Assembly: GCA_041306665.1 (NCBI GenBank)
Contig: JBFZEW010000400.1
Location: forward strand, 1-24,902
DNA length: 24,902 bases
Origin: Spirochaetota bacterium
GTDB taxonomy: Bacteria > Spirochaetota > UBA4802 > JAFGJZ01
Direction of reading: 5' to 3'
In this document: in pieces, positions 11,451 through 23,925 of the stretch
How the letters are laid out: each line of letters starts with the position of its first letter
Numbering within the stretch: position 1 is the stretch's first letter
The notes under the pieces: model-generated
Databases searched by the model: none
The model's input: the letters and a program-made list of their open reading frames with translations, nothing else
What the model was told of the DNA's origin: nothing
Position numbers and translations under genes: made by a program

Positions 11451-11816
11451 ATGGATTTCTACTTGAAACTGTTAAAATGCCTTGGAGATCAAACAAGGAT
11501 CAGAATTCTCAGATTATTGATGGAATCAAAACTTGAACTCTGCGTTTGTGAAATCGTGGATTCACTTCAGATTCCATTTTACAGCATTTCAAAGCACATT
11601 AAAGAATTAAAAAACACAGGGATTTTGTCTGAATCCAGAAACGGAACATTCATCATGTACTCCATTGCCAAGGATGAAAATGAATTTATTACTAAAATCA
11701 TCGAGTTGATAAAAACCATTCCCGATGAAAACTTTTCTAGTGACATTACTTTACTCAAAAAAAGATTGGCAATCAGGGAAAACGGAAAATGCACAATAGG
11801 TCTCATTAAAAAATAA
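11451..11816 (+). CDS. arsR: ArsR/SmtB family repressor
   Basis: LGDQTRIRIL, the alpha3 As(III)-type site ELCVCEI, HTH SISKHIKEL and a further C-terminal Cys; first gene of the ars cluster. Confidence 0.92.
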   Translation: MDFYLKLLKCLGDQTRIRILRLLMESKLELCVCEIVDSLQIPFYSISKHIKELKNTGILSESRNGTFIMYSIAKDENEFITKIIELIKTIPDENFSSDITLLKKRLAIRENGKCTIGLIKK

Positions 11817-11839
11817 ATACCTGCGTTCATGGAGATAAA

Positions 11840-13014
11840 ATGAATAATATTAAAAAATTTTTTGTTATAACCTCAGTATTTGCCGGATTTTTTTTCATTC
11901 CTTTTAATTCAATGCGCATAAGTAACGCGGTAATGGAAGCTTTATTCATGACTCAAGAATACGCTCGTGACCATATATTGCTATGTCTGCTTCCCGCTTT
12001 TTTCATCGCCGGCGCAATCGGAAATTTCATCAGTCAGGGAGCGGTAATCAAATTTCTTGGCGCAAAAGCAAATAAGTTTGTCTCCTACGGAGTTGCTTCA
12101 GTTTCAGGATCAATTCTCGCGGTCTGCTCATGTACAGTTCTTCCTCTATTCGGCGGAATTTACAAACGCGGTGCGGGTCTGGGTCCGGCGATTTCTTTTT
12201 TATATTCAGGTCCCGCAATTAATGTTCTGGCTATAATAATGACCGCCAGAATTCTTGGACTTGAACTCGGAATCGCGAGAGCAATATCAGCAGTAATCTT
12301 TTCAATTGTAATCGGAATTATGATGCATTTCATTTTCATCAAAGAAGAAAATGCCCGCAACAAAGAACTTGAAATGATGATTCCTGAAGATGAAAATTCT
12401 AGTGGAAGAAAACTTTGGCAGACCGCCCTGAACATTGCCGCGATGATCGGCATCCTCGTTTTCGTTAACTGGGGCAAGGATGAATCCATGCGGTTCTGGA
12501 ATGTAATCTATAATTTTAAATATCATATAACTGCAGTTTTCGCCGTTCTGCTAGCGGTATCATTTATCCTGTGGTTCAGAAAAGATGAAATGAAATCATG
12601 GGTAAAAACAAGTTTCGAATTTTCATTGCAGATTATGCCGCTGCTGTTCGCAGGCGTCCTTATTGCCGGATTTTTACTTGGCCGCCCCGGACATGAAGGA
12701 ATCATTCCATCCCAATGGATTTCTTGCTTGTCGGAGGCAACAGCCTTTTTTCTAATTTGTTCGCTTCAATCGCGGGAGCATTCATGTACTTCGCAACGCT
12801 TACGGAAGTTCCGATTCTGCAGGGATTGATCGGCAGCGGAATGGGCAAAGGCCCGGCGCTCGCGCTTCTATTGGCCGGTCCGGCATTGTCGCTGCCAAGC
12901 ATGCTGGCAATTCGGAGTATGATTGGAAATAAAAAAACTTTCGTCTATGTATCGCTTGTGATTGTCATGTCGACAATTACCGGAATGACATATGGCGCGC
13001 TATTCGGAGCATAA
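11840..13014 (+). pseudogene. arsP: ArsP-like (DUF318/COG0701) permease split by a 1-nt frameshift near 12724
   Basis: The N-terminal part has AVCSCTVLPLF and FLYSGPAINV. The C-terminal part (LVGGNSLFSNLFASIAGAFMYFATLTEVPILQGL..GMGKGPALALLLAGPALSLPS) is in the -1 frame. Adding one T at TCT-TG-CTT restores a 391-aa ORF. May be a sequencing error. Confidence 0.8.
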
Positions 13015-13015
13015 C

Positions 13016-13504
13016 ATGTCATCTGTTATAATTCTTGCCGCATTTACATTTATCTGCCTGATAATTTCATTTTTTTCAGACAGGGAGAAAACCGGTATTG
13101 CATTAAAACGCGCAGCTACAATGCTTTTAAATCTGCTGCCGCCTTTTTTTACAATACTGATTCTCATAAGTCTGATTTTATATTTAGTGCCTCAGAGTTA
13201 CATGATTAAAATTTTCGGAAAAGAATCAGGCATAACAGGCATGATCCTTGCTGCAGCTGTAGGTTCAATATCACTAATACCCGGATTTATTGCATATCCG
13301 CTAAGCAGTATATTAATCAAAAACGGCGTAAGTTATTCCGTAATTGCTGTTTTCATCACAACACTCATGATGGTAGGTATAGTTACAATACCGATTGAAA
13401 GAAAATTTTTCGGAATTAAAATTACATTGATGCGTAATGGTTTAAGTTTCGCAGGAGCTTTGCTCATTGGCCTAACAATGGCAGTCCTGTGGAGTGTTAT
13501 ATGA
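13016..13504 (+). CDS. Half-size DUF318-like permease subunit A
   Basis: 162 aa from ATG 13016 (GGAG at 13006-13009, a better start than the track's 12992). Multi-TM with the motifs GSISLIPGFIAYPL and TIPIERKFFGIK. Confidence 0.8.
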   Translation: MSSVIILAAFTFICLIISFFSDREKTGIALKRAATMLLNLLPPFFTILILISLILYLVPQSYMIKIFGKESGITGMILAAAVGSISLIPGFIAYPLSSILIKNGVSYSVIAVFITTLMMVGIVTIPIERKFFGIKITLMRNGLSFAGALLIGLTMAVLWSVI

Positions 13505-14061
13505 AACAGTTTATTAAAAAAAATAAATTCGATTTAATGCTGCTTTTTTCGTTTATCACTTTCATCATATATTCACATTTAGTAAGTCACGCAGCCGGGA
13601 TCGAAATTGGAAATAATTTCGGAAAATTTTTCGTTGAAATGATAACATTTATTCCACTGATCTTCATTTTAATCGGGTTATTCGATGTATGGATTTCAAA
13701 GGAAAAAATTCAAAAACATATCGGGTATAATTCCGGAATTAAAGGCTCATTCTGGGTAATACTTCTTGCAATGCTTCAGGCCGGTCCGCTGTACAGCTCC
13801 TTTCCAGTCGCATATATCTTATGGAAAAAAGGAGCAAGCATCAGGAATATATTTATTTACCTTGGAGCATTTTCGACATTAAAAATTCCCATGCTTGCTT
13901 TTGAAATTACCTATCTCGGCCTCAAATTTTCACTACTGCGGACATTTATAACATTACCCGTTTTTATAATTATCGCACTAATAATGGAAAAAATATTAGT
14001 TATTACAGATTTCCGGGTTACAGATCCGGGGAAACAGGAGAAAAATAATGAACAAAATTAA
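13501..14061 (+). CDS. Half-size DUF318-like permease subunit B
   Basis: 186 aa from ATG 13501 (ATGA overlap with the previous stop, GGAG just upstream). Multi-TM with the motifs [11 protein letters not shown] and [13 protein letters not shown]. Confidence 0.8.
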
Positions 14062-14479
14062 AGTTTTATTCGTTTGTATTCACAATTCAGCGAGAAGCCA
14101 AATGGCGGAAAAATTTTTAAATGAACTTGGCGGAGAGAAATTCGCAGCTGAAAGCGCGGGCATCGAGCCGGGAGTTTTAAATCAAACTGTTGTTAAAGCA
14201 ATGATGGAGGCAGGATACGACATATCCGGTAACGCGACTAAATCTGTTTTTGATGTTTTTAAATCAGGAAAAACTTATGACTATGTTGTTACAGTGTGCG
14301 ATCCTGAAGCTGCAGAAAAATGTCCGCTCTTCCCCGGAATTGTTAAACGTGAACATTGGGGATTCAAAGATCCATCTTCATTCAAAGGCACAGATGAAGA
14401 AAAACTGAACTTTACAATAAAAATCCGCGATGAAATTAAAAGCAAAATTCAAGAATTTATTAAAAATACTGAGGAATAA
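14048..14479 (+). CDS. arsC: Thioredoxin-coupled (LMW-PTP-fold) arsenate reductase
   Basis: P-loop [14 protein letters not shown], resolving Cys pair [13 protein letters not shown] and HWGFKDP. Confidence 0.93.
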
Positions 14480-14481
14480 AA

Positions 14482-15546
14482 ATGGCAAAAGGAATTTCAT
14501 TTTTTGAAAAATACTTAACAGTCTGGGTCATGCTCTGCGTCGCGGCTGGGACATCTTTAGGAATATTTCTTCCGCAGATTCCCGTCTTTCTCAGCAAAAT
14601 GGAATACGCGCATGTTTCCATTCCGGTCGCGATTCTAATATGGCTTATGATTTATCCAATGATGCTTAAAATTGATTTTACTAGCATTGTGAAATCCATA
14701 AAACAACCAAAAGGACTTGCCATTACATTAACGACAAACTGGCTGATTAAGCCGTTCACAATGTTTGGTATTGCCTGGCTGTTTTTTTTCATAATCTTCA
14801 AACCATTTATATTGCCGGAAAACGCGAAGCAGTATCTCGCGGGAGCAGTGCTGCTCGGAGCCGCGCCGTGCACGGCAATGGTATTTGTATGGAGCTATCT
14901 GACAAAAGGAAACGCGGCATACACACTTGTTCAAGTCGCGGTAAATGATTTAGTTATTCTAATCGCGTTTGCACCCATTGTCGCTTTTCTGCTCGGATTA
15001 AGCGATATTATTATTCCTTTCGACACATTACTCCTATCCGTTCTGCTTTTCGTGGTTATTCCGCTGACTTTAGGATATTTAACGCGAATATGCATTATTA
15101 AAATGAAAGGCGAGGAATTTTACAACAACAGGTTTGTGCCGAAATTCAACGGAATTACGATAGCTGGATTGCTTGCAACGCTTATCATAATTTTTTCTTT
15201 TCAGGGCGAAACAATACTTAACAATCCTTTAGCAATTATTCTTATTTCAGTTCCATTAATAATACAAACATTCTTTATTTTCTACATGGCTTTTTTATGG
15301 GCGCGATTCTGGAAACTTCCTCATAGTATTGCCAGTCCAGCAGCAATGATCGGTGCCAGCAATTTCTTTGAACTTGCTGTTGCAGTAGCAATTTCATTGT
15401 TCGGATTAAATTCAGGCGCAACTCTTGCAACTGTTGTCGGTGTACTTGTCGAAGTCCCGGTGATGCTCACTCTAGTAAAAATTTCTAACAACTCAAAACA
15501 TTGGTTCAGTAAAGAAGTACTCGAAATGGCTGGAATTGATAATTAA
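14482..15546 (+). CDS. acr3: Acr3 family arsenite efflux transporter
   Basis: Motifs FFEKYLTVWV, GAAPCTAMVFVWS, GASNFFELAVAVA and VLVEVPVML. Confidence 0.95.
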   Translation: MAKGISFFEKYLTVWVMLCVAAGTSLGIFLPQIPVFLSKMEYAHVSIPVAILIWLMIYPMMLKIDFTSIVKSIKQPKGLAITLTTNWLIKPFTMFGIAWLFFFIIFKPFILPENAKQYLAGAVLLGAAPCTAMVFVWSYLTKGNAAYTLVQVAVNDLVILIAFAPIVAFLLGLSDIIIPFDTLLLSVLLFVVIPLTLGYLTRICIIKMKGEEFYNNRFVPKFNGITIAGLLATLIIIFSFQGETILNNPLAIILISVPLIIQTFFIFYMAFLWARFWKLPHSIASPAAMIGASNFFELAVAVAISLFGLNSGATLATVVGVLVEVPVMLTLVKISNNSKHWFSKEVLEMAGIDN

Positions 15547-15590
15547 ATATTTCAACAGCCAGATACATTACACAAAAAAGAGGAATTATT

Positions 15591-15821
15591 ATGATAATTA
15601 AAATTTTAGGAAGCGGATGTCCGAAATGCAAACAGCTTCAGGCGAACACAGAAAAAGCCGTACAAACTGCCGGCATTAATGCGACTATCGAAAAAGTAAC
15701 AGATATGAAGAAAATAATGGATTACGGAGTAATGATGACTCCCGCTCTTGTTATTGATGAAGTTGTAAAATCATCCGGTAAACTGCTGACAGCTGATGAA
15801 ATTCAGAATTTTTTAAAATAA
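15591..15821 (+). CDS. Small thioredoxin-like protein (TM0996/MTH895 type)
   Basis: IKILGSGCPKC CxxC motif and YGVMMTPALVIDE; 76 aa; GAGG SD. Confidence 0.9.
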   Translation: MIIKILGSGCPKCKQLQANTEKAVQTAGINATIEKVTDMKKIMDYGVMMTPALVIDEVVKSSGKLLTADEIQNFLK

Positions 15822-16261: not shown

Positions 16262-16549
16262 ATGAGGGAAATTTTGAATAAACGAAAGGACATGGAATGC
16301 AGAGTTGGATGCGGAGCATGCTGCATTGCTCTTTCTATCAGTTCGCCATTACCGGGAATGCCAAACGGAAAAAAGGCAGGGGAAAGATGTATTAATCTGA
16401 AGAATGATTCAACCTGCAGTGTTCATGGAACTGATTTTTATCCCGAGGTCTGCAGAAATTTAACACCGCAAAAAGAAATGTGCGGTAGAAGTTTTGAAGA
16501 AGCTATGAATTATCTGAGCATACTGGAAAAGCTGACAAAACCTGATTGA
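16262..16549 (+). CDS. YkgJ/UPF0153 family Cys-cluster (CxxxCxxCC) protein
   Basis: CRVGCGACCIALSISSPLPGMPNGKKAGERC...C...C...C. The ATG at 16292 (MECRVGC) is an alternative start. Confidence 0.88.
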   Translation: MREILNKRKDMECRVGCGACCIALSISSPLPGMPNGKKAGERCINLKNDSTCSVHGTDFYPEVCRNLTPQKEMCGRSFEEAMNYLSILEKLTKPD

Positions 16550-16576
16550 CTCTTCCCTGGCCGGAGACTGTAAATT
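16546..16576 (+). promoter_or_regulatory. MerR-type long-spacer promoter
   Basis: TTGACT (16546-16551)-exactly 19 nt-TAAATT (16571-16576). The spacer CTTCCCTGGCCGGAGACTG is GC-rich with a weak TCC-N6-GGA dyad. It lies 30 nt upstream of a MerR-family gene. Confidence 0.8.
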
Positions 16577-16605
16577 TTCATTATACCATCAAGGAGAAAA
16601 CCTAA

Positions 16606-17409
16606 ATGTATTCAATTGGTGAATTTTCTTTAATTACAAAGCTTTCTGTTAAAACTCTCAGACACTACCATACTGAGAATATTCTTGATCCTGATTACAT
16701 CGATGAAGATTCAGGCTACAGGTATTACCGTGAAGCATCAATTCAAAAAGCTGAAATGATAAAAATGCTTCGCGACCTGGAATTTTCCATAAGTGATATC
16801 AGAGAAATTACCGAAAAATTTACCGACGACTCCGAGATTCTTCCGTATCTTAATTCACAGAAAGAAAAAATCAGAATGAAACTCGAAGAGTATGAAAAAA
16901 TTAATTTTTCCCTTGAAAGTATAATTAAAAACGCAGAGGAGAGAAAAATGAAAAAATCCTATTCAGACAAAGTTGTTGATAAAAATATCGGCGATTTTAT
17001 TTTTGCCGGCTACCGCTTCAAAGGCAGATACGATGAAGTCGGAAAAGCATTTTCAAAAATCGGGAAAGCCGCCGGCCGCTTTATAAACGGCAAAGCAATG
17101 TCGCTTTACTATGATGGAGAATACAGAGAAAGCGACGCGGATATTGAAGGCGGATTCCCTCTTAAAAAGGAAATCAGCAATCCGGAAATAAATTGCCGTG
17201 TTCTGAAAGGCGGTAAAGCGGCAACAATCATACATTCCGGTTCATATGACACATTAAGCGAGTCCTATAAAAAACTGTTTAATTATATTGAACAGAATAA
17301 AATTAAAACAGATCTTCCGGCACGGGAAATTTACATTAAAGGTCCGGGAATGATTTTCCGCGGCAATCCGGAAAAATATGTTACTGAAATTCAGATAATG
17401 TTTAAATAA
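16606..17409 (+). CDS. MerR family regulator with C-terminal GyrI-like ligand-binding domain (BmrR/EcmrR type)
   Basis: N-terminal YSIGEFS..LSVKTLRHYH...DSGYRYY, a coiled-coil linker, then a GyrI-like domain (ATIIHSGSYDTLSESYKKL, AREIY, YVTEIQI). Confidence 0.93.
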   Translation: MYSIGEFSLITKLSVKTLRHYHTENILDPDYIDEDSGYRYYREASIQKAEMIKMLRDLEFSISDIREITEKFTDDSEILPYLNSQKEKIRMKLEEYEKINFSLESIIKNAEERKMKKSYSDKVVDKNIGDFIFAGYRFKGRYDEVGKAFSKIGKAAGRFINGKAMSLYYDGEYRESDADIEGGFPLKKEISNPEINCRVLKGGKAATIIHSGSYDTLSESYKKLFNYIEQNKIKTDLPAREIYIKGPGMIFRGNPEKYVTEIQIMFK

Positions 17410-17416
17410 AACGGAA

Positions 17417-17452
17417 AAAGAAAAAGACGCTTTTCAAAGTGTCTTTTTCTTT
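17417..17452. terminator. Bidirectional intrinsic terminator between the MerR gene and the convergent membrane-protein gene
   Basis: AAAGAAAAAGACGC (17417-17430) pairs with GTGTCTTTTTCTTT (17439-17452), with one G-U pair and A/T tracts on both sides. Confidence 0.75.
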
Positions 17453-18141
17453 ATAATATAAATCCATATTGAAAATAAAAATCCAAAGCAAATAAGCTGT
17501 GACATCAAAACAGTCCACGAGTAATTAAAATATTTTGCTTCACCTAATGTATGAAACATCATTGACACGAAAAAGAAAAACCACATTATGTAAAATGATT
17601 TAATTAAAACATAACCAACACCGTAAAATAGACCCATGATAAACATTATCACAAACATTTCTACACCGAATTTTTTATCGATAAAAAATGATAATCCGCA
17701 GGCAGCTCCTGAACTGAACACAGGAACGATTATTTTCAAAATTTTTCCTGGCATCATTTCATCAAAAATCGATGGAATTAAATAAAAACAATACATTGTT
17801 ACACCAAATGACATTGGAACAAACAAAATCAGATATTTGATTATCTCTTCCAAGCCCGGTCTGTTTTTTATCACAAGTTCCAGATTGTTTTCGGAAAATA
17901 TTCCCGCCGTCGTAAAAAGAATTAAATATATTATACCGGCACTATATAATAATAATTTCACCGGATATTTCATTTTAATTCCAAACTTCCATACAATAAC
18001 TAATGGAATAAATACGCATGATAACATCAGATATAAGAATGTAAAAATTACGTTCCCTGCAATGCCTCCTGTAAAGACTGCGAGACCCCAGAAAAAAAGG
18101 TATGCTGTAAAACCTGAAAAAACTGCATAATTTTTATTCAT
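17434..18141 (-). CDS. Uncharacterised multi-pass membrane protein
   Basis: 235 aa with about 7-8 hydrophobic segments; overlaps the PadR stop by 8 bp. Faint resemblance to CPBP proteins (SMMFHT) but no EExxxR motif. Confidence 0.8.
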   Translation of the reverse strand: MNKNYAVFSGFTAYLFFWGLAVFTGGIAGNVIFTFLYLMLSCVFIPLVIVWKFGIKMKYPVKLLLYSAGIIYLILFTTAGIFSENNLELVIKNRPGLEEIIKYLILFVPMSFGVTMYCFYLIPSIFDEMMPGKILKIIVPVFSSGAACGLSFFIDKKFGVEMFVIMFIMGLFYGVGYVLIKSFYIMWFFFFVSMMFHTLGEAKYFNYSWTVLMSQLICFGFLFSIWIYIIKKKTL

Positions 18142-18679
18142 TTTTCTCTCCTTGAAATAATTTAATTACTTCATTGCACCATTTAATTTCAGCTTCTGTG
18201 TGAATTATTGAATGTCTAAATACAGCATCCGCTGTTTTTCTGTAATTTTCCGGAAGATACTTTAAAGTCAGTTTTCGGTGGTTTAAAATATATTTATGTT
18301 TATAATTTTCATTTTCCAGTTTTTTATTGAAATATTGAATCAGCCGGTTTTCCGAGTATTCATCTGCGAAAAATAAAATCACATCATCTTTATAAAAAAT
18401 ATTTTCATCCTGAATAAGAAGTTTTTCTAAAAGCTCATGAAACAAAGAAAGACCTCTTTTATTTATTGAAAAAACAATTATCTCTTTTTTTACCGGAGAT
18501 ATATCCTTTTCTGACTCGAGATACCCTTCTTCATGCAATTTTTCCAGATGATAATAAACATTTGAAAGTTTCACATTCACAAAATCAGAAACTTCGTTTG
18601 CTATTTTTTCTTTCAGTTCATACCCGTGCAATGGTCCGAAACGTTTCAGGAAACCCAGAATTACCAGTTTTAGTTCCAT
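18134..18679 (-). CDS. PadR family transcriptional regulator
   Basis: MELKLVILGFLKRFGPLHGYELKE...VYYHLEKLHEEGYL...FSINKRG winged HTH with a long C-terminal helical domain. ATG 18679 preferred over TTG 18685. Confidence 0.9.
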   Translation of the reverse strand: MELKLVILGFLKRFGPLHGYELKEKIANEVSDFVNVKLSNVYYHLEKLHEEGYLESEKDISPVKKEIIVFSINKRGLSLFHELLEKLLIQDENIFYKDDVILFFADEYSENRLIQYFNKKLENENYKHKYILNHRKLTLKYLPENYRKTADAVFRHSIIHTEAEIKWCNEVIKLFQGEKNE

Positions 18680-18691
18680 TTTCAACCTGCC

Positions 18692-21971: not shown

Positions 21972-22167
21972 TATGCCTCCGCTTTAATTTCAAACTTATT
22001 ATATGAATGTATTTTGCAAATTTCAATAGAAATTTTAATCAATATTATATTTAAATTCTTTAATCAATAAATTTTCATGAATAACATTTCGCAATTGACT
22101 TTCCACTTAACTTATTTTTATGTTAAATTTCAAATGTTCAATAATTTTAATCAGTAGGACTTTATAA

Positions 22168-23925
22168 ATGAATAATAAAATTCTTAAATTTTTTATGCCT
22201 TACATTCCCAAATTATTTCCGATTTTTCTTATAAACGCCATTGCGGCATCGGCAATGGCGTTACTGATTCCATGGATAATGAAAATAATGATTGATGAAG
22301 TCTTTCCGCAGAAAAACATTCAATTATTATTCCGGCTTATAATTACTCTTACTATTACAAGACTCATATCCGCAGTTCTTTTATCAGTAACATTATTATT
22401 AAGAGAAGCATTAATATTAAAAATAACTAATATACTTCGGGGGAACATCACCAATAAATTAAACTCTCTTTCTTTATCCGTATTGAACAAAGAAAAAACC
22501 GGTAATATAATGAATACCATTTCTGATGATTGTCCATCTTTTGTTGCAATTATCAGTATTATTCAGGATTTATTTTTCATTTTTATACTTTTCATATCTC
22601 AAATTGCTGTAGTATCAATAATTGCACCTAAATTACTTTTTATTGCTATCCCGATTCTTTTCTTATTTCCTGTTCTGAATCTTTTTACATCCCGTAAATT
22701 CCGGGATCTTGAATATAATTATCGCAACTCATACGGCAGACTTAACAACTTCATTCATGAAATAATCGGTGGTATAAAAGAAATTAAGAGTTTCAACCGG
22801 CAGTCATGGCAGAATGCTGTATTACATAATTATTTTACTCAACTGGAGAATATATATTTAAAATATTTTAAATCTTTCACAATTTCCTTTTTCAGTAACG
22901 ATTTACTTAGACTTCTCACCGACATACTAATATACTCTGCTGCCGGACTTCTTGTAATAAAAAGCAACTATACTGCAGGTTCCGCTATTGCAGCAGCAAC
23001 ATATATCAATAGCCTGATTACTCCAGTCAGCTCGTTCGGAGAAAGCATTGGAGCAATAAGAAGCAAACTTGCAGCATGGGACAGAGTAAATGCTGTTTTA
23101 GAACTTCCTTCGGATGAATACGAAAATAAAGGAGATAATCAATTTCCTTCTGTTTTTGAAAAACTCGAATTTAAAGATGTACTTTTTTCATATACTGAAT
23201 CTGAAAGTGTGCTGAAAAATATAACTCTTGAAATTAAAAAAAACAGCTTCATTTCAATAGCAGGATTAAGCGGCTGCGGGAAGAGTACAATTATAAACCT
23301 GATTTTAAAACTCCTTAAACCCGACAAAGGGCAGATACTTATAAACAATGAAAGCATTAGCGAAATAAAAACAATTTCTCTACGCGATAACATCGCAGTT
23401 GTTTTTCAGGATCCGTTTTTATTTGATGATACTATTATTGAAAATCTCAAATTCGGAAATCCGGATGCATCTTTGGATGATATTATAAGCTGTGCAAAGA
23501 AAGCGCATATTCATGAATTTATTTCTTCACTTTCCGACAAATATGAAACAACAATCGGCGAACGGGGAGTATTCCTGTCGGGCGGACAGAAGCAGCGGCT
23601 CGGGATTGCACGAGCTCTGATTAAAAATCCTCAAATACTCATACTTGATGAAGCAACTTCATGGCTTGATTTCAAACTGGAAGACAGCATGATTGATCTT
23701 ATCACGGAGCTGAAACAAAGTATGACAATCATCTGTGTTTCTCACAGAATCAATTCAGTCAAACAATCAGATACAATTATATTTCTCAATGAGGGAAAAA
23801 TTGAAAAATGCGGAACACACGAAGAACTTTTGAGTTCAAGCACTCTTTACAACGAACTTGTTTATAATAAACTTGCAGAAGTGCAGTCCGGAAAAATACA
23901 GGATTGTACTTCATTGAACTCTTAG
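22168..23925 (+). CDS. ABC exporter (fused TMD + NBD, type IV)
   Basis: Six-TM N-terminal domain, Walker A GLSGCGKST, Q-loop VFQD, signature LSGGQ, Walker B ILILDEATS and H-loop VSHR. No C39 peptidase domain. Confidence 0.93.
   Translation: MNNKILKFFMPYIPKLFPIFLINAIAASAMALLIPWIMKIMIDEVFPQKNIQLLFRLIITLTITRLISAVLLSVTLLLREALILKITNILRGNITNKLNSLSLSVLNKEKTGNIMNTISDDCPSFVAIISIIQDLFFIFILFISQIAVVSIIAPKLLFIAIPILFLFPVLNLFTSRKFRDLEYNYRNSYGRLNNFIHEIIGGIKEIKSFNRQSWQNAVLHNYFTQLENIYLKYFKSFTISFFSNDLLRLLTDILIYSAAGLLVIKSNYTAGSAIAAATYINSLITPVSSFGESIGAIRSKLAAWDRVNAVLELPSDEYENKGDNQFPSVFEKLEFKDVLFSYTESESVLKNITLEIKKNSFISIAGLSGCGKSTIINLILKLLKPDKGQILINNESISEIKTISLRDNIAVVFQDPFLFDDTIIENLKFGNPDASLDDIISCAKKAHIHEFISSLSDKYETTIGERGVFLSGGQKQRLGIARALIKNPQILILDEATSWLDFKLEDSMIDLITELKQSMTIICVSHRINSVKQSDTIIFLNEGKIEKCGTHEELLSSSTLYNELVYNKLAEVQSGKIQDCTSLNS

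Follow-up and report, generated by a model that had tools for sequence, protein, structure and literature searches.

Comparative evidence for a conserved, predicted internal translation start in a putatively autoregulated MerR-GyrI gene, a candidate one-gene, two-protein sense-and-sequester module

Introduction

Two regulators of the MerR family are known to yield a second, shorter protein that protects the cell. In TipA of Streptomyces, two in-frame starts give the full-length regulator (TipAL) and the drug-sequestering ligand-binding domain alone (TipAS), an arrangement described as a minimal multidrug resistance (MDR) system that is autoregulated (PMC7762955). AlbA of Klebsiella oxytoca is a self-upregulating MerR-family sensor, and AlbAS, its ligand-binding domain alone and an alternative translation product, neutralises antibiotics by binding them (10.64898/2026.09.21.753095). 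The two-product arrangement is so far known only for regulators with a drug-binding domain unrelated to the GyrI-like one. Here we analysed a stretch of 24,902 nucleotides (nt) from a Spirochaetota bacterium (contig JBFZEW010000400.1 of assembly GCA_041306665.1; hereafter the window), which carries a gene for a MerR-type regulator with a C-terminal GyrI-like domain. At the boundary between its coiled coil and the GyrI-like domain, an internal Shine-Dalgarno (SD) sequence and an ATG are under codon-level selection across phyla, and the local mRNA structure is weakened. On balance we favour reading the locus as a sense-and-sequester module in the style of TipA and AlbA, self-contained and autoinduced, in which one gene gives two proteins and which is built on a GyrI-like domain.

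Like the window gene, TipAL/TipAS combines a MerR-type N-terminal domain and a coiled coil with a MerR-type promoter of its own. The effector domains have unrelated folds, TipAS (PF07739) in TipA and GyrI-like (PF06445) in the window protein, and the ligand-binding domain of AlbA is likewise different, an all-helical tandem TipAS-like repeat. Pfam searches found no TipAS domain in the window protein; the gene is thus not of the TipA class by homology, and the likeness is one of mechanism. The TipA isoforms were shown experimentally, whereas those of the window gene are deduced from comparative sequence only.

The closest solved full-length relative is EcmrR of Enterobacterales (PDB 6XL5 and 6WL5; E 8e-44, Foldseek rank 1). 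It has the same three-part architecture, but is ~26% identical to the window protein and has a weaker internal SD (-5.6 kcal/mol). For its structural study the gene was codon-optimised and the spacer was taken from bmr (PMC8113463), so that the native ecmrR promoter, its targets and any isoform lay outside that work. A tblastn search of plasmids for EcmrR itself returned only relatives below 60% identity. In native EcmrR loci on metagenome contigs (L082-L089), a TTGACT-ctcctgtaaggtaagactg-TAAGGT promoter with a 19-bp spacer lies directly upstream of ecmrR, and the in-frame ATG at the same domain boundary (Met112) is preceded by AAGGAA at a distance of 7 nt. BmrR of Bacillus subtilis shares the MerR helix-turn-helix, the coiled coil and a GyrI-like multidrug pocket with the window protein, but matches it by sequence in the N-terminal half only. 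It activates a 19-bp-spacer promoter by DNA distortion, and the bmr -35 hexamer with the left half-site TTGACTCTCCCC equals the consensus of the family studied here (PMC7722741). The BmrR operator drives the bmr efflux pump gene, whereas the window gene has no linked pump.

GyrI-like domains can also act by trapping a drug. CtaZ and the ligand-binding domain of STM3175/YgiV are GyrI-like and confer resistance by sequestering an antibiotic (PMC9545259, PMC10414762), as the proposed short isoform would. In neither case does an internal start in a MerR gene supply the protein: CtaZ has a gene of its own beside a biosynthetic cluster, and STM3175 has an AraC-type DNA-binding domain and gains potency via gene amplification. 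BrlR of Pseudomonas aeruginosa is a MerR regulator with a GyrI-like domain, distant from the window protein (18% identity in the fold match). The mex efflux operons are among its targets, and its ligands include cyclic di-GMP and pyocyanin; we know of no BrlR isoform. A preprint of September 2026 presents short isoforms as peculiar to AlbA and TipA and names EcmrR, BmrR and BrlR only as drug sensors (10.64898/2026.09.21.753095). In the literature that we searched, neither an isoform nor an internal start is described for BmrR, EcmrR or other GyrI-type MerR regulators.

A Shine-Dalgarno sequence and an in-frame ATG are conserved at the domain boundary

The gene and its signals are arranged in the window as follows.

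16262-16549, + strand: upstream CxxCxxCC-domain open reading frame (ORF), its TGA stop (16547-16549) lying inside the -35 hexamer
16546-16551, + strand: -35 hexamer TTGACT, kept at the same position in ~70 of 81 family loci
16552-16570, + strand: 19-bp spacer with the predicted MerR-type operator CTTCCCTGGCCGGAGACTG, slightly degenerate against the family consensus CTCCCCTTgcgGGAGgccn
16571-16576, + strand: -10 hexamer TAAATT
16591-16596, + strand: SD of the full-length start, AAGGAG, 9 nt 5' of ATG 16606 (duplex -8.5 kcal/mol)
16606-17409, + strand: full-length MerR-GyrI gene, 267 amino acids (aa), 31.1 kDa, from the ORF, Pfam and an AlphaFold model
16936-16941, + strand: internal SD, GAGGAG, formed by two GAG glutamate codons, 6 nt 5' of ATG 16948
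16948-17409, + strand: predicted short-isoform ORF, Met115-Lys267, the GyrI-like domain alone (153 aa, 17.4 kDa, isoelectric point 9.3)
17417-17452, both strands: bidirectional intrinsic terminator hairpin of 16 bp with A-tract and T-tract flanks, shared with the convergent gene 17434-18141

An earlier note on this DNA had described the 19-bp-spacer promoter aimed at the merR gene, with its -35 hexamer over the upstream stop codon, and GAGGAG 6 nt before an in-frame ATG; both are present where it placed them. The terminator that it saw straight after the gene was confirmed by folding (-18.6 kcal/mol, z = -7.25; 0 of 200 shuffles fold equally well). A simple terminator scan had missed this hairpin, and a simple promoter scan, which covers spacers of 16-18 bp, is blind to the 19-bp promoter.

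Pfam identified an N-terminal MerR winged helix-turn-helix (MerR_1 PF13411, residues 2-70, E 1e-14; PF00376, E 1.7e-8), a part of the protein that aligns with the N-terminal domains of EcmrR, BmrR and MtaN, and a GyrI-like (SHS2 duplicate) domain at residues 129-266 (PF06445, E 1.5e-13). NCBIfam has no specific model for the protein. In the AlphaFold model (mean predicted local distance difference test, pLDDT, 87) a single unbroken helix, residues 75-116, predicted to be a dimerisation coiled coil, runs between the two domains. Since this helix ends at residue 116, a low-confidence linker spans 114-118 (Met115 pLDDT < 50) and the first strand of the GyrI-like domain begins at residue 124, Met115 marks the domain boundary. 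The model thereby agrees with where the earlier note had put the boundary, and the DNA-binding-less product of 153 aa that it predicted has the computed mass listed above.

The window has 161 internal in-frame ATGs in 25 ORFs, and none of the others is preceded by an SD as strong as that of Met115 (-9.1 kcal/mol against the 16S rRNA 3' end). This value beats the gene's own start (-8.5) and 22 of the 25 annotated starts. The GAG used twice in the motif is the minor glutamate codon (75 GAG vs. 340 GAA). By itself the sequence of the window is no more than suggestive, and significance rests on comparison across the family.

For this comparison 80 homologous genomic loci were fetched, spanning five or more phyla (Spirochaetota, Ignavibacteriota-like, Planctomycetota, Verrucomicrobiota-like, Acidobacteriota and other lineages), and counts are given per 81 genes; databases hold more than 1,100 relatives of ~267 aa. 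The synonymous null consisted of recodings drawn from each locus's own codon usage. An alignment of 41 sequences has Met as its majority residue at the boundary, in a linker without other conservation. An ATG no more than a few residues from the boundary is present in 71 of the 81 genes, in a linker that is otherwise variable. The mean SD energy upstream of these boundary ATGs was -7.8 kcal/mol, compared to -4.6 in synonymous recodings. The 398 other internal Met codons of the same genes served as a control and showed no such difference (-3.0 observed vs. -3.05 null). A codon-by-codon scan revealed an SD peak at reference positions 115-117 (-6.6 to -7.2), with the annotated start at -5.7 and a gene mean of -2.6 ± 1.4. 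At the same three positions the excess over the synonymous null was -2.0, -3.05 and -2.83 kcal/mol, against 0.00 ± 0.46 gene-wide, and no other site is an outlier of this size. The earlier note had named conservation of SD and Met at this boundary beyond amino-acid constraint as a check on its reading, and the result is clearly positive (an ATG in 71 of 81 genes; an SD excess of 2-3 kcal/mol).

The sequence that provides the SD differs by clade. It is GAA AAG GAG in the Ignavibacteria-like genes, CGG GAG GC or AGG GAG GC in Planctomycetota, and GAGGAG, AAGGAG or AGGGAG in Spirochaetota, and the SD excess is -3 to -5 kcal/mol in all three. A GGAG/GAGG-type core lies 3-14 nt upstream of 76% of the boundary Met codons, compared to 8% of the control Met codons and 43% of the annotated starts, and the spacing from SD to boundary ATG has modes at 6, 8 and 11 nt. 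A strong SD is present in 62% of genes with a boundary Met and in 20% of the 10 genes without one (Fisher p = 0.017). The gene has one other SD-like stretch, a GGNGG imposed by the conserved residues KGGK (reference positions 205-207, ~17200-17226 in the window), and codon choice across the family weakens it, by +0.7 to +0.9 kcal/mol. Because this site is weakened and the boundary site strengthened, SD-like sequence appears to be selected against in places without a following start and favoured in front of one. Over ±20 nt around the boundary, the mRNA is +1.4 kcal/mol less structured than the synonymous null (gene-wide -0.46 ± 0.67), an effect independent of the SD; weak local mRNA structure is typical of translation initiation regions.

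The arrangement is not confined to the 80 loci, as it is also seen in the native EcmrR loci and on a plasmid. The 270-kb Clostridium estertheticum plasmid pCF016-270 (L081, 2498-4234) carries two convergent family paralogues, tail to tail, each with its own 19-bp-spacer promoter and internal SD and ATG. One has AAGGAG 9 nt before the ATG and the other a purine-rich motif before it.

Genes with neither the boundary Met nor its SD were found in L014, L018, L021, L032, L033, L035 and L056, a Verrucomicrobiota-like subclade. In 5 of 6 of them the rare leucine codon TTG occurs one residue past the boundary position. Annotated starts in the subclade have a mean SD of -2.2, and in several genes the -10 hexamer lies so close to the ATG as to suggest leaderless mRNAs. 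A separate GyrI-like gene in the operon accompanies 2/10 genes that have lost the internal Met and 3/71 genes that keep it, an association too weak to be used.

The predicted short product resembles stand-alone GyrI-like binders

The C-terminal 153 aa align end to end with CtaZ (E 1e-28; Foldseek template modelling score, TM, 0.90; root-mean-square deviation 2.0 Å), and the two share the motif KGPGMIFxGNPxKYxTE (also given as KGPGMIxKGNPxKYITE). Other fold matches were the rhodamine-binding protein CTR107 (TM 0.81) and the C-terminal domain of EcmrR (TM 0.78). The hydrolase Lin2189 was the fold match of rank 27 (TM 0.56, 14% identity) and is absent from the sequence-level PDB matches. Two acidic residues, E181 and E261, are invariant across the family.

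A domain of this length also occurs by itself, as ~23 of the best 150 representatives for the C-terminal domain are stand-alone relatives of 144-165 aa. An EcmrR construct that starts at the equivalent residue (112-269) was soluble and was crystallised with ligand; the full-length protein, by contrast, precipitates (PMC8113463). Self-resistance is conferred by the stand-alone CtaZ, which is GyrI-like and confines closthioamide (PMC9545259), and the GyrI-like domain of STM3175 gives albicidin resistance alone (PMC10414762). By analogy the 153-aa product is predicted to be viable by itself, as a stand-alone GyrI-like binder.

The operator-promoter stands before the gene itself

An operator-promoter of bmr type, TTGACT-CTCCCCTT…GGAG-19 bp-TAnnnT, stands ahead of the transcription unit of the gene itself in ~70 of the 81 loci. 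The conserved element CTTGACT-CTCCCCTTgcgGGAGgccn-TAtanT, with its 19-bp spacer, lies before the gene in 64 loci including the window; it is found 230-770 bp upstream in several further loci, some of which have a small co-oriented gene in between, adjoining the merR gene. TAnnnT is located 19 bp past the -35 hexamer in 52 of 81 loci. The family operator consensus, CTTGACTCTCCCCTTgcgGGAGgccnTAtanT, was built from 70 sites; it is pseudo-palindromic and sits in the 19-bp-spacer promoter, and the window operator agrees with 19 of its 22 strongly conserved positions. Comparison of the window promoter TTGACTCTTCCC with the B. subtilis bmr promoter, ...CCGTTGACTCTCCCC (primer in PMC7722741), verified the likeness that the earlier note had suggested for the -35 hexamer and the left half-site, which are identical.

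The CTCCC...GGGAG dyad is centred ~2 bp upstream of the geometric centre of the spacer, and the bmr operator dyad is off-centre by the same ~2 bp in the upstream direction. Since the dyad is off-centre, the small number of complementary pairs about the geometric centre is uninformative, and conservation was used instead.

The search for further targets covered one 25-kb contig of the host genome and the ±4-kb flanks of the homologous loci. No second operator copy was found in the flanks of 80 loci, and no other such dyad occurs in the 24.9-kb window. Among ~300 flanking ORFs there is no conserved neighbour, the largest cluster having 6 members, and no pump is a conserved neighbour among the recurrent annotated ORFs flanking the 80 homologues. 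The small clusters of neighbours comprise a stand-alone GyrI-like protein, a small membrane protein and an OmdA/YdeI protein. The downstream gene is convergent in 33 of 73 loci. Because the operator at the gene's own promoter is conserved and the neighbours are not, autoregulation of a mostly monocistronic unit is probably a family trait; the self-targeting promoter described in the earlier note is conserved family-wide, with neither an efflux pump nor a partner gene conserved alongside. In the window itself no efflux pump gene lies within the merR-GyrI transcription unit, as judged from cis-linked genes, and the terminator and the convergent gene come next.

The only candidate second target within the window is TTGACTtTCCaCTT at 22095-22130, which matches 6 of 8 left half-site positions ~70 nt upstream of an exporter ORF. 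It has no GGAG right half, its best -10 gives an 18-bp spacer, ~2.3 such two-mismatch hits are expected by chance, and it is probably an ordinary promoter.

In L002 (3436-4000), L003 (3444-4000), L068 (2106-2830) and probably L004, the operator-promoter precedes a gene for a multi-pass membrane protein of 165-196 aa, which in L002, L003 and L068 had no Pfam match. This gene ends 2-3 nt before the merR gene in L002-L004 and 138 nt before it in L068, and with the operator-promoter in front of it the regulon there gains one extra cistron. A separate stand-alone GyrI-like gene (~200 aa, PF06445, E 1.6e-8) adjoins the merR-GyrI gene downstream in L017, L029 and L070 and upstream in L041 and L054, the gap being -4 to 64 nt; the operator-promoter of L041 stands ahead of the GyrI-like gene.

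Other genes around the locus

On the - strand, the convergent unit 17434-18685 encodes a 235-aa multi-pass membrane protein (17434-18141), which had no Pfam or NCBIfam match, and a PadR-family regulator, the two genes overlapping by 8 nt. This pair is also syntenic in L001, the closest relative. An arsenic-resistance-like cluster at 11451-15821 ends ~0.8 kb 5' of the merR promoter and contains an ArsR-type regulator, an ArsP-like permease (11840-12829), a low-molecular-weight-phosphatase-type ArsC, an ACR3/SBF-type carrier, a small thioredoxin-like protein and two overlapping half-size ArsP-like ORFs (12992-13504 and 13489-14061).

Discussion

The module that we propose would work as follows. 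A dimer of the full-length 267-aa protein would bind the bmr-like operator in the 19-bp spacer of its own promoter. Filling of the GyrI-like pocket by a small molecule, probably lipophilic or aromatic, would untwist the spacer, a mechanism solved for BmrR and EcmrR, and the monocistronic mRNA would rise. This one mRNA would be read from two starts, AAGGAG with ATG 16606 for the regulator and GAGGAG with ATG 16948 for the 153-aa GyrI-like domain. The short form, devoid of the DNA-binding and dimerisation parts, would accumulate and bind the ligand, and the cell would be protected. It would also drain the inducer and damp induction, a negative loop on a positive loop as in TipAL/TipAS and AlbA/AlbAS. 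From the conserved boundary signals the short isoform is probably made from Met115; that initiation does occur there, that activation is ligand-dependent and that the short form sequesters its ligand are steps that we infer.

The earlier note had read the locus as a positive-feedback loop overproducing a GyrI-like sponge or detoxifying enzyme. The conserved SD and Met, the self-targeting promoter and the lack of a linked pump speak for that reading; its novelty is narrower than supposed, as autoregulation and GyrI-like sponges are not new as such. BrlR reportedly activates its own promoter, so that autoregulation of a MerR-GyrI regulator has a precedent. The new part is the combination of an autoregulated MerR-GyrI gene with a conserved internal start.

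Several observations weigh against internal initiation. The evidence for it is entirely comparative, and kinship among the sequences was handled by per-clade analysis alone. For the window gene by itself the synonymous-recoding null gives p = 0.086, which is not significant. The E-[KR]-E motif before the Met favours SD-like sequence of its own accord, the null being -4.6 here and -3.0 elsewhere. Ten of the 81 genes have no boundary Met and carry Leu, Ile or Val near that position instead, so that a hydrophobic residue may have a structural role; the Met-less clade also has no SD at its annotated start, and the joint absence of Met and SD could partly be lineage-specific SD use. In ~19 genes, mostly from Planctomycetota, the SD-ATG spacing is 11 nt, the long end of the workable range. 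The replacement residues, the amino-acid motif and the p-value of the window gene would all suit a gene that makes only the full-length protein, with Met and E-[KR]-E structural at the end of the coiled coil and the purine-rich codons under another constraint, e.g. a ribosome pause for stepwise domain folding. This we consider improbable. A structural constraint cannot explain synonymous choice, and the -3 kcal/mol excess is the unique outlier of the gene; the weakened KGGK site would be left unexplained, and neither weak mRNA structure, nor initiation-type spacing, nor an SD mostly where the ATG is would be predicted. Furthermore, the linker that contains Met115 is of low confidence, a pause could do without an ATG, and SD-induced ribosome pausing is itself disputed. 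The signal might also be a decaying, functionless relic from the time when a MerR-type gene was fused to a GyrI-like gene that had stood alone; stand-alone GyrI-like genes starting at the equivalent residue are indeed common, and some adjoin family members. With the family 40-60% identical at the protein level over several phyla, neutral synonymous sites should be randomised, yet distinct SD sequences are maintained in each clade and the control sites in the same genes show no excess; we find a relic scarcely credible.

A different objection accepts the operator and doubts its role: the protein could be a BmrR-type activator of the usual kind that acts chiefly on efflux or detoxification genes in other parts of the genome, its own site serving simple autoregulation and the short isoform only tuning the response. 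BrlR has mex pump operons among its targets, besides its own promoter. The bmr pump gene is activated by BmrR (PMC7722741), and the view of the host genome is limited to 25 kb. An ATP-binding cassette exporter ORF (ABC_membrane and ABC_tran domains, 22168-23925), 4.7 kb downstream and behind the left-half-operator match described above, also counts against a module without a pump. That match, however, lacks the right half and the 19-bp spacer and is of a kind expected by chance, the flanks of the 80 loci hold neither a second operator nor a pump as conserved neighbour, and the promoter before the gene itself is the one feature conserved everywhere. An ordinary activator is therefore unlikely in our judgement, though it deserves to be taken seriously. 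Even if internal initiation is real, the short GyrI-like protein could be a toxin-hydrolysing enzyme like YtkR7, C10R6 and Lin2189 and not a stoichiometric binder. The GyrI-like superfamily includes cyclopropanoid hydrolases (PMC9545259), E181 and E261 are invariant in the family, and Lin2189 is among the fold matches. Overall sequence and fold are nonetheless far nearer to the binders CtaZ, CTR107 and the EcmrR C-terminal domain than to Lin2189, and the window protein has the motif of CtaZ, which is without the hydrolase residues (PMC9545259). A hydrolase consequently seems a poor candidate.

We return to the sense-and-sequester module and its wider meaning. The EcmrR-type MerR-GyrI branch has more than 1,000 database proteins, from Spirochaetota, Ignavibacteriota, Planctomycetota, Acidobacteriota, Bacillota and Enterobacterales. 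We tentatively suggest, short of a firm belief, that its members may primarily be stand-alone, autoinduced sense-and-sequester modules rather than pump regulators, with the short isoform as main product and effector, and that the TipA/AlbA strategy may have arisen independently on an unrelated fold. If the short isoform is made, a large and broad family that now carries only the label 'MerR family transcriptional regulator' would amount to a compact device for resistance, in which one promoter and one mRNA provide both sensor and sponge. The TipA/AlbA strategy would have been invented a second time, independently, on a different drug-binding fold, and autoinduction paired with internal initiation would appear to be a general way to titrate toxic small molecules. 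EcmrR is a structural model, studied by cryo-EM, for MerR-type activation and has, to our knowledge, no known physiological target; it would gain a native function and a native promoter, and a second product that has been overlooked so far. A clear case would be added to the small list of conserved bacterial internal translation starts. The family, which includes plasmid-borne and enterobacterial members, would represent a sequestration-type resistance determinant that pump-centred annotation has missed.

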